Shown here in pieces: positions 21,575 through 23,562 of a stretch of 39,461 bases of DNA (position 1 is its first letter; each line of letters starts with the position of its first letter). This DNA comes from Escherichia phage PhiV-1. Where the stretch lies: the sequence record MT542512, one strand, 5' to 3'. The notes beneath the pieces were generated by a model. That model saw only the letters and a program-made list of their open reading frames with translations, was not told the origin of the DNA and did not search any database. The position numbers were made by a program, and so were the translations under genes.

Positions 21575-21597
21575 TAATACGACTCACTATTGGGAGA
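21575..21597 (+). promoter_or_regulatory. Phage RNAP promoter (phi10)
   Basis: TAATACGACTCACTATTGGGAGA; 5' hairpin gggagagacattacgttctccc. Confidence 0.75.
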
Positions 21598-21703: not shown

Positions 21704-22747
21704 ATGGCTAACATGAATGGTGGACAGCAGATGGGTAAAGACCAAGGTAAAGGCATGAGCGCTGGTGACAAACTGGCTCTGTTCCTGAAGGTCTTCGGTG
21801 GTGAAGTTCTGACTGCATTTACCCGTACCTCCGTAACTATGAACAAACACCTTGTGCGTTCTATTCAGTCCGGTAAGTCCGCGCAGTTCCCTGTGCTGGG
21901 TCGTACCAAAGCTGCTTACCTGCAACCGGGTGAGAACCTCGATGACAAACGTAAAGACATGAAGCACACTGAGAAGGTCATCAACATTGATGGTCTGCTG
22001 ACTGCTGACGTTCTGATTTACGACATCGAAGACGCAATGAACCACTATGACGTGCGCTCCGAGTATACCGCACAGTTGGGTGAATCTCTCGCGATGGCTG
22101 CTGATGGCGCGGTTCTGGCTGAAATGGCTAAACTGTGTAACCTGCCGTCTGCGTCTGATGAGAACATCGCTGGTCTCGGTAAGGCTCATGTACTGGAAGT
22201 TGGCAAGCAGTCTGATCTTCAGGGAGACCAAGTTAAGCTGGGTCAGGCTATTATCGCACAGTTAACTCTGGCTCGTGCCAAGCTGACTAGCAACTATGTT
22301 CCGTCTGCTGACCGTGTGTTCTACACCACTCCAGACAACTACTCTGCTATTCTGGCTGCTCTGATGCCTAACGCTGCAAACTATCAGGCTCTGATTGACC
22401 CGTCTACTGGCTCTATCCGCAACGTTATGGGCTTCGAAGTTATTGAGGTTCCGCATCTGACTGCTGGTGGTGCTGGCGAAGACCGTCCAGAAGAGGGTGT
22501 AAATCCGACTGGTCAGAAACATGCGTTCCCTGAGACTTCCTCTGGTGACACCCGTGTTGCTCTGGACAACGTTGTCGGTCTGTTCAATCACCGCTCTGCC
22601 GTTGGTACTGTTAAGCTGAAAGATATGGCACTGGAACGTGCTCGTCGAGCTAACTTCCAAGCAGACCAGATTATCGCTAAGTACGCTATGGGTCACGGTG
22701 GTCTGCGCCCTGAAGCATGTGGCGCGCTGGTTTTCAACAAGGCTTAA
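21704..22747 (+). CDS. 10A: Major capsid protein 10A
   Basis: 347 aa; MA.M.GGQQMG N-terminus and RANFQADQIIAKYAMGHGGLRPEA as in T7 gp10A. Confidence 0.98.
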   Translation: MANMNGGQQMGKDQGKGMSAGDKLALFLKVFGGEVLTAFTRTSVTMNKHLVRSIQSGKSAQFPVLGRTKAAYLQPGENLDDKRKDMKHTEKVINIDGLLTADVLIYDIEDAMNHYDVRSEYTAQLGESLAMAADGAVLAEMAKLCNLPSASDENIAGLGKAHVLEVGKQSDLQGDQVKLGQAIIAQLTLARAKLTSNYVPSADRVFYTTPDNYSAILAALMPNAANYQALIDPSTGSIRNVMGFEVIEVPHLTAGGAGEDRPEEGVNPTGQKHAFPETSSGDTRVALDNVVGLFNHRSAVGTVKLKDMALERARRANFQADQIIAKYAMGHGGLRPEACGALVFNKA

Positions 22748-22881
22748 CTTCTCGCAAACTCGTGGGGGACATTGAGTCCCTTACTGAAGTTGAGCAAGAG
22801 CTAACGCCACAACAGAAAGCTGCCCGTACCCGTGCGGCAAACAAGGCTCGAAAGGAAGCTGAGTTAGCTGCTACTGAATGA
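21704..22881 (+). CDS. 10B: Minor capsid protein 10B (10A extended by -1 frameshift at 22729-22735)
   Basis: -1 frame after slippery site encodes ..QQGLTSRKLVGDIESLTEVEQELTPQQKAARTRAANKARKEAELAATE, ending just before the terminator hairpin. Confidence 0.5.
22729..22735 (+). other. Putative -1 programmed ribosomal frameshift heptamer G_GUU_UUC
   Basis: Heptamer 15 nt before the 10A stop; the -1 frame stays open for 50 codons to TGA at 22879. Confidence 0.55.
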
Positions 22882-22891
22882 TAACTATATG

Positions 22892-22933
22892 AAACCCCTT
22901 GGGTGCCTTCGCGGGTGCTTGAGGGGTTTTTTT
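22892..22933 (+). terminator. Tphi-like late terminator
   Basis: aaccccttgggtgccttcgcgggtgcttgaggggttttttt; G-U containing hairpin plus U-tract, resembles T7 Tphi. Confidence 0.7.
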
Positions 22934-22940
22934 CGTACCA

Positions 22941-22963
22941 CTAATAGACTCACTAATGGGAGG
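22941..22963 (+). promoter_or_regulatory. Phage RNAP promoter, variant (phi11 position)
   Basis: CTAATAGACTCACTAATGGGAGG. Confidence 0.5.
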
Positions 22964-22971
22964 AAATCACT

Positions 22972-23562
22972 ATGCGTTCCTATGAGACTACCCTAGAGAC
23001 TGGCGAAGAGTTGGCTGCGGTAAATGACATCTTGGCCTCTATCGGTGAACCACCTGTGTCCACTTTGGAAGGTGATGCTAACGCCGATGTTGCCAATGCT
23101 CGTCGAGTTCTCAATAAGATTAACCGACAGATTCAGTCCAAGGGTTGGACGTTCAACATTGAGGAAGACCAACAGTTGCTACCTGATGTGTTCAACGGAT
23201 TGATTCCTTATATGTCCGACTACCTGTCTGTGATGACACCGGGAGGCGCTACTGCCTATGTCAACCGGGGTGGTTACGTGTTTGACCGGACTACTGGAAC
23301 TGACGTGTTTAAAGAACCAATCACTGTGACCATTATCAAGCTGAGAGAGTTCTACGAGATGCCTGAATGTTTCCGCTTCTGGATTGTCACCAAAGCTGCC
23401 CGTCAGTTTAACAACAGGTTCTTTGGTGCTCCCGAGATTGACGCAGTGTTAGCTGAAGAAGAACAAGAAGCAAAGATGCAGTGTCACGAGTATGAACTGG
23501 ACTTTGGTAACTTCAACATGCTTGATGGTGATGCCTTCACTGGCGGTCTGCTATCTCGCTAA
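22972..23562 (+). CDS. 11: Tail tubular protein A
   Basis: 196 aa; [47 protein letters not shown] as in T7 gp11. Confidence 0.95.

Follow-up and report, generated by a model that had tools for sequence, protein, structure and literature searches.

A predicted programmed -1 ribosomal frameshift in gene 10 of Escherichia phage PhiV-1 and a putative stem-loop stimulator beside it

Condron, Atkins and Gesteland are said to have described in 1991 the -1 programmed frameshift of T7 gene 10, by which the two proteins 10A and 10B are made. The review by Atkins (2016) gives the X_XX of the T7 site as G_GU, a recognised intermediate form, and reports an unexplained involvement in the frameshifting of a CCCC that lies in the terminator, over 200 nt downstream. 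The T7 heptamer with its immediate flank only gives less than 1% shifting, compared with about 10% in wild-type T7. Phages of the T3 and phiYeO3-12 type also shift by -1 in the last few capsid codons and make a minor, C-terminally extended capsid protein; they use a canonical lysyl slip site, C_CCA_AAG, whereas the phage described here has a phenylalanyl site, and their tail is about 85-90 aa long and forms an Ig-like domain, whereas that of the present phage is a linker and a helix. Escherichia coli dnaX offers a further comparison. It likewise has a -1 shift on bacterial ribosomes, and the structure that lies a few nt 3' of its heptamer is a simple stem-loop rather than a pseudoknot; removal of that stem-loop lowers efficiency. 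The dnaX heptamer is fully canonical (A_AAA_AAG), is assisted by an upstream Shine-Dalgarno stimulator and shifts at about 50%, in contrast to the non-canonical heptamer and expected value of about 10% in the present case.

The DNA analysed here (the window) is 39,461 nucleotides of Escherichia phage PhiV-1 (MT542512), a complete T7-like genome with its genes on the + strand; all coordinates are positions in this window and all features lie on that strand. The capsid region is 97% identical in nucleotides to Kluyvera phage Kvp1 and Escherichia phage CarlSpitteler, both of which belong to Berlinvirus (Studiervirinae), and the first 25 kb of the window are about 93% identical to CarlSpitteler and 285P. 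On these identities PhiV-1 is assigned to Berlinvirus as a relative of T7. The major capsid gene, 10A, occupies 21704..22747 in the list of open reading frames and ends at TAA 22745-22747. Its product has 347 aa (37.1 kDa) and matches the Pfam family PF21703, Gp10A-like, over residues 61-343 (E = 9.5e-108). We interpret the end of this gene as the site of a programmed -1 ribosomal frameshift of the kind found in gene 10 of T7-family phages, with a probability of about 0.93.

The candidate shift site is the slippery heptamer G_GUU_UUC at 22729..22735, which is the same as the T7 gene 10 site. G22729 closes a CTG codon, after which the 10A frame reads GTT (Val343) and TTC (Phe344), the codons assigned to the ribosomal P site (GUU) and A site (UUC). 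Three 0-frame codons, AAC AAG GCT, separate the heptamer from the 10A stop, so that GTT begins 15 nt upstream of the TAA, which is the position given in the original prediction and can be read directly from the sequence. The string GGTTTTC has two copies in the 39.5-kb window, and only the copy at 22729 lies within an ORF in the phase G_GTT_TTC. Because TGA 22711-22713 closes the -1 frame upstream, a shift into that frame is possible only within 22714-22747, and GGTTTTC is the sole slippery motif in this permitted stretch. The heptamer departs from the canonical X_XXY_YYZ pattern in having G, G and U at the XXX positions, and the P-site tRNA-Val would therefore re-pair at only two of three positions. 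Inspection of the sequence 8-14 nt 5' of the heptamer revealed no convincing Shine-Dalgarno-like stimulator of the dnaX kind.

Beyond the heptamer, the -1 frame continues for 48 codons (QQGLTSRKLVGDIESLTEVEQELTPQQKAARTRAANKARKEAELAATE) to TGA 22879-22881. This extension (22735..22881), identified by translation and by alignment of the tail with T7 and other relatives, would give a 10B of 392 aa and 42.0 kDa encoded by 21704..22735 joined to 22735..22881, with C22735 read twice. The end of the frame is thus where it had been predicted from the sequence. The predicted length of 50 open codons holds if both heptamer codons in the -1 frame (GGT TTT) are included; the number of new residues is 48. 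The other two frames contain three and five stops over the same stretch. The open frame by itself is weak evidence, because a stop-free -1 frame over the same 144 nt also arises in 10% of shuffles, and we consider that it is the comparative evidence that decides between a programmed shift and chance. The length of the -1 extension after other genes was considered as a statistic and dropped, since it is confounded by overlapping downstream genes.

Comparison with T7 gene 10 reveals the same arrangement. The T7 locus has the site GTGGTTTTCAAAGTGGAGTAA and a tail that runs QSGVMLGV...LTPAQEAARTRAANKARKEAELAAATAEQ. In both phages the heptamer G_GUU_UUC stands three codons ahead of the 10A stop, with the shift directed into the -1 frame; a 10-bp stem starts 5-6 nt downstream of the site and includes the 10A stop codon; the tail contains LTPxQ(K/E)AARTRAANKARKEAELAA; and that tail ends just before a Tphi terminator bearing CCCC. 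The claim that the locus mirrors the T7 10A/10B arrangement is therefore upheld in the heptamer, its position where the Gp10A-like domain ends, a homologous tail and a Tphi-like terminator. The two differ in tail length (48 aa in PhiV-1, 53 in T7), and the N-terminal halves of their tails have unrelated sequences (QQGLTSRKLVGDIESLTEVEQE in PhiV-1, QSGVMLGVASTVAASPEEASVTSTEET in T7). The arms of the stem also differ in sequence, the structure enclosed by the stem is one hairpin in PhiV-1 and a branched fold in T7, and the terminator lies about 160 nt from the site in PhiV-1 compared with about 177-200 nt in T7.

A wider set of relatives was assembled from 80 loci fetched by capsid-protein homology, with further loci fetched by the tail motif; individual loci are designated L followed by a number. 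Among the loci chosen via capsid homology, NGTTTTC is present at the same place in all those with a T7-type tail, including T7 (L040) and L037. The first base of the heptamer is G, A or C across these relatives, so that the invariant core is U_UUC. Such a core is consistent with a tRNA-Phe that slips in the A site and a P-site tRNA that re-pairs only in part. The co-occurrence of slip motif and extension was counted in a non-redundant set of 70 T7-like capsid loci. Of the 45 loci that have U_UUY or A_AAR in the permitted stretch, 43 also have a -1 extension of 40 codons or more, and an extension of this kind is found in 5 of the 25 loci that lack the motif (Fisher p = 6e-11, uncorrected for phylogeny). 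The median gap to the next gene is 225 nt in relatives with an extension and 73.5 nt in those without. In two loci the slip site has been replaced and the tail kept: L095 has G_GUA_AAG and L126 has GCA_AAG_UAA. Many loci without the tail write Val-Phe as GTC or GTG followed by TTC.

A predicted two-tier stem-loop (22742..22795), recognised by folding and covariation, lies 3' of the heptamer and is a candidate stimulator. It is separated from the heptamer by the 6-nt spacer AACAAG (22736..22741), which places it within the 5-9 nt at which structures lie 3' of the heptamer in canonical cassettes. The spacer is the most variable stretch among close relatives, which also vary in the hairpin loop. 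In the predicted fold, an outer 10-bp stem pairs 22742-22751 (GCUUAACUUC, which holds the 10A stop) with 22786-22795, and an inner 9-bp hairpin pairs 22762-22770 with 22776-22784 around a loop at 22771-22775. The predicted free energy is -24.9 kcal/mol and the structure makes up 70% of the ensemble (z = -3.9); one of 200 shuffles was as stable. A search of Rfam 15 with 22500-23100 gave no meaningful match, even at E values up to 10.

The stem-loops of the Berlin and T7 groups were analysed separately, because their loop lengths differ and their 3' arms are not positionally homologous. In 12 distinct Berlin-type sequences, 99.1% of cells are paired, four pairs have changed on both sides and nine further pair types occur; these pairing values were reached by none of 500 shuffles, and pairing in slid controls is 29-53%. 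A single divergent lineage, L014, accounts for all four double compensatory changes; it carries 12 stem substitutions and keeps all 19 pairs, an outcome matched by random replacement in 110 of 200,000 trials. An analogous 10-bp stem, formed by GGAGUAAUGC and GUGUUACUUC, occurs in the T7 group, where it starts 5 nt beyond the site and again spans the stop. Its pairing is 100% across 16 sequences, in which five changes affect one side of a pair, and RNAalifold predicts the stem independently; the shuffle control is uninformative for this group because the changes are one-sided only. Similar two-tier folds of different sequence are found in three loci with a T7-type tail, L019, L095 and L099 (z = -1.9 to -3.1), and some lineages with Ig-like tails have no comparable two-tier fold. 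Some of the conservation is protein-driven, since the stem-loop sits in coding sequence, and published studies of T7 implicate a distal element in the terminator. The compensatory changes indicate that pairing in the stem-loop is under selection. Whether this pairing serves as a frameshift stimulator is a proposition to which we give about even odds.

The terminator at the far end of the tail is Tphi-like and intrinsic (22891..22936), with an 18-bp hairpin (22891-22908 paired with 22913-22930) and a U tract; it was identified by folding, by a terminator scan and by alignment with T7 Tphi. The hairpin starts 9 nt after TGA 22879-22881, in agreement with its predicted place directly downstream of the -1 stop. 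It contains CCCC at 22895-22898, about 160 nt downstream of the site, which on sequence grounds is the counterpart of the distal element reported for T7 gene 10. Long-range pairing of this CCCC with a G-run in the inner hairpin (22764-22768) was considered and dropped as unsupported. RNAduplex gives about -32 kcal/mol for the interaction in both PhiV-1 and T7, a value that ignores the stable intramolecular hairpins, and the G-run is not conserved in the T7 group, where TGGGGG, TGGAAG, TAAGGG and CAAGGA occur.

The tail had been predicted to be basic and rich in Ala and Lys. As a whole it has a net charge of 0 (8 K/R and 8 D/E), and its first 26 residues are acidic; the description applies to the last 22 residues, which are Ala-rich as well as basic (+6/-3). 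Residues 23-38 of the tail (22801..22848) form the motif LTPQQKAARTRAANKA, whose columns are invariant or nearly so. AlphaFold2, supplied with an alignment of 21 tails, predicts an α-helix over tail residues 25-47 (22807-22875) with pLDDT 86-92 and gives low confidence to residues 1-24. These features suggest an acidic linker of about 24 residues, probably disordered, followed by one basic α-helix with LTPxQKAARTRAANKA. Within the 15-codon block LTPxQKAARTRAANK, 19 distinct nucleotide versions have 4, 1 and 14 variable sites at the first, second and third codon positions, and, when the block is read in the -1 frame, 2 of 15 codons vary in amino acid, compared with 13 of 14 in either other frame. 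This pattern argues that the motif is under strong purifying selection as protein across the T7 and Berlin groups.

No Pfam domain was found in the 48-aa tail by a Pfam search. Two whole-database protein searches with it returned only short stand-alone calls of the tail and two small motif-bearing proteins; the motif is too short for its distribution to be mapped by sequence search. The helix motif is also found in unrelated phage proteins, and where it is present in other proteins it matches phrog_12582. In Yersinia phage Yep-phi a nonsense mutation ends the tail prematurely, after 19 codons, and in L033 the tail helix is partly missing. 10B is dispensable in T7, and this together with the Yep-phi mutation means that selection for 10B is not absolute.

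Evidence at the protein level comes from Kvp1, whose record (FJ194439) annotates 10B as a two-piece joined CDS arising from ribosomal frameshifting. SDS-PAGE and MALDI mass spectrometry of Kvp1 virions revealed a 43.6-kDa band with tryptic peptides of m/z 2244.123, 2372.219 and 2692.310, covering residues 327-372 (Lingohr et al. 2008, PMC2579914). We computed MH+ values of 2244.124 and 2372.219 for (K)LVGDTESLTEVEQELTPQQK, and 2692.308 for the Kvp1 junction peptide YAMGHGGLRPEACGALVF/QQGLTSR (the slash marks the shift). The latter is within 0.002 Da of the published mass if carbamidomethyl-Cys and oxidised Met are assumed, and a shift one codon earlier or later would put the mass off by 14-42 Da or more. 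The heptamer, spacer and stop of Kvp1 are identical to those of PhiV-1, and the two tails agree at 47 of 48 residues, the exception being Thr to Ile at tail position 13; in the inner hairpin, the pair at 22764 is G-U in PhiV-1 and A-U in Kvp1. The Kvp1 paper states that there is "no typical slippage site" and locates a "potential pseudoknot" 144 bp beyond the capsid gene, at the terminator (PMC2579914); it does not describe the proximal stem-loop seen in PhiV-1. Virion mass spectrometry for the junction peptide, the check put forward with the original prediction, has in effect already been done for Kvp1, with a positive result. For PhiV-1 the calculated junction peptide is YAMGHGGLRPEACGALVFQQGLTSR, MH+ 2619.29 unmodified and 2676.31 with carbamidomethyl-Cys, and a tail peptide, LVGDIESLTEVEQELTPQQK, has a calculated MH+ of 2256.16.

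If the site works as a programmed frameshift, the majority of ribosomes would read GUU UUC AAC AAG GCU UAA and release the 347-aa 10A, and a minority would move back by one base on G_GUU_UUC. In this step the tRNA-Phe in the A site would re-pair from UUC to UUU, and the tRNA-Val in the P site, imperfectly, from GUU to GGU. The slipped ribosomes would continue with CAA CAA GGC and so on for 48 more codons to give the 392-aa minor capsid protein 10B, which would co-assemble into the capsid shell. The stem-loop, which carries the 10A stop in its 5' arm, would probably resist unwinding during decoding of the slippery codons and in this way act as a proximal stimulator, and the terminator region about 160 nt downstream may add a contribution, as in T7. 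PhiV-1 itself probably produces 10B, and by analogy with T7 the efficiency would be about 10%.

Three other explanations were weighed, which together hold less than a tenth of the probability. The extension might be an independent small gene, expressed without frameshifting as a 54-aa protein from ATG 22717 (22717..22881, -1 frame). Such an ATG-initiated ORF is indeed present in the ORF list, the PhiV-1 record carries an identical 54-aa product as a stand-alone entry ("hypothetical protein" or "capsid and scaffold protein"), and similar products of 42-55 aa have been called in many relatives, where they form phrog_12582, "head protein". However, the upstream sequence, CGCCCTGAAGC-ATG, has no usable Shine-Dalgarno, its GAAG being only 1 nt from the ATG. 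The ATG itself is missing in relatives with the same tail, which have GCAGTAGG (L008-L012) or GCTGCTGG (the T7 group) instead, and the stand-alone "genes" of relatives begin at differing, non-homologous Met or Leu codons. The mass of the Kvp1 junction peptide, moreover, places the tail in fusion with 10A residues. We regard the 54-aa stand-alone gene as an annotation artefact of the 10B tail and consider its independent expression very improbable. An equally slight chance is given to transcriptional slippage, in which the phage RNA polymerase would omit a single U at the run of four T and so produce a -1 subpopulation of mRNA. The shift site does contain the homopolymer TTTT (22731-22734), and the product of slippage would also read ...VF/QQ..., so that the Kvp1 mass spectrometry cannot separate the transcriptional from the ribosomal route, the protein product being the same. 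Productive slippage by RNA polymerase needs runs of about 7-9 or more identical bases, and a run of four is far too short. Relatives substitute A_AAG motifs, which are equally short runs and are classic ribosomal shift sites, and a structure 6 nt 3' of the site with pairing under selection fits a ribosomal mechanism. T7 gene 10 is also treated as ribosomal frameshifting in the Atkins 2016 review.

The remaining explanation, only slightly less improbable than the other two, is that shifting occurs at background level and that the tail is a functionless, decaying relic from a T7-like ancestor. Consistent with this, 10B is non-essential in T7, the tail is cut short in Yep-phi and its helix partly lost in L033, and the heptamer with its immediate flank shifts at less than 1%. 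Decay is difficult to reconcile, however, with the strong purifying selection on the tail motif at the protein level, with the persistence of the tail where the slip site has changed type, with the co-occurrence of slip motif and extension, with stem-loop pairing kept by compensatory change, and with 10B forming a visible virion band in Kvp1. Programmed ribosomal frameshifting is thus the reading that we prefer for the PhiV-1 site.

Read in this way, the site is a textbook case, the 10A/10B frameshift of T7, and PhiV-1 is a new isolate of a genus in which this frameshift is already known and demonstrated; confirmation consequently adds little. For annotation, the 54-aa call of the -1 frame should be joined to gene 10, so that the two together are recorded as the minor capsid protein 10B made by frameshifting. 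Work on anti-phage defence makes wide use of PhiV-1 as a test phage, and a correct capsid proteome is therefore useful. Beyond this we advance two tentative suggestions, both rather doubtful at present: that the proximal stem-loop may be the stimulator missing from the T7-family gene 10 model, which currently relies on a non-canonical heptamer and a long-range, unexplained effect of the terminator, and, separately, that the tail helix may be a portable binding motif. The covarying stem-loop could help to explain the difference between less than 1% shifting with the flank only and about 10% in the native context of the T7 heptamer. The occurrence of the tail helix in unrelated phage proteins provides a handle on the function of 10B, which, if the suggestion of a portable motif is true, would be a specific binding function.

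The -1 ORF at 22717-22881 is called as a stand-alone gene, and not as the tail of the frameshift product 10B, in the source record and in many relatives. These calls are 42-55 aa long, are named "hypothetical", "capsid and scaffold" or "head protein", and have annotated starts that are non-homologous from phage to phage. The stand-alone ORF is a systematic annotation artefact of the 10B tail. A natural truncation of 10B is found in L007/L097 (38,616-bp contig, Yersinia phage Yep-phi; L-numbers denote loci fetched for comparison by capsid homology or tail motif). A G-to-T change converts a tail codon from GAG to TAG after 19 tail residues, and also disrupts one pair of the predicted outer stem (U-G to U-U). 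Because the tail sequence 3' of the new TAG remains intact, this truncation is recent.

The spacer 3' of the slip site varies among Berlinvirus-like (Berlin-type) relatives. Several of them, including L009, L010, L013, L014, L067 and others, carry GGTTTTCAAAAAGG directly 3' of the GGTTTTC heptamer, which gives a second potential slip motif, C_AAA_AAG, immediately after the first; the window has AACAAG at the same place, without C_AAA_AAG. Farther 3', the outer stem and the inner hairpin are separated by a 10-nt internal loop, UCUCGCAAAC (22752-22761), that shows no variation among the Berlin-type sequences, even at synonymous positions, apart from one change in L014. Given the low diversity of these sequences, this invariance may or may not reflect a further constraint, for example a tertiary contact. 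Two phage-type promoters are seen on either side of the region: TAATACGACTCACTATTGGGAGA at 21575-21597, 5' of gene 10, and a weaker copy, TAATAGACTCACTAATGGGAGGA, at 22942-22964, which immediately follows the terminator and precedes gene 11. This weaker promoter is phi11 in the annotation of Kluyvera phage Kvp1 and is missing in several close relatives.

The conserved motif of the 10B tail, (E)LTPxQKAARTRAANKA (22801-22848 in the window, -1 frame), also occurs in-frame in unrelated proteins of phage and metagenome contigs. Loci with the motif outside 10B are L115, L117, L118, L122, L129, L133, L134, L136, L139 and L141. In L141 it lies in a 91-aa protein encoded three genes downstream of an HK97-type capsid gene, in L136 it lies in a 248-aa acidic protein flanked by a helicase and an exonuclease, and some DUF6496 proteins terminate in it. 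Unrelated proteins bearing the motif match phrog_12582 ("head protein") with E values of 1e-10 to 1e-14, through the motif only. The tail motif looks to be a short, portable helix motif.

The heptamer is likewise found with other partners. At the homologous capsid position of L054, L055, L057, L059 and L064 (also L011 and L077), GGTTTTC leads into an unrelated tail of about 90 aa (VTGVTLSQATMSLQIGNTKTLTATVAP...), which from its sequence looks Ig-like, with Big_2-like repeats. Since the same heptamer precedes unrelated tails in these other lineages, the slip site is shared and the tails joined to it differ.
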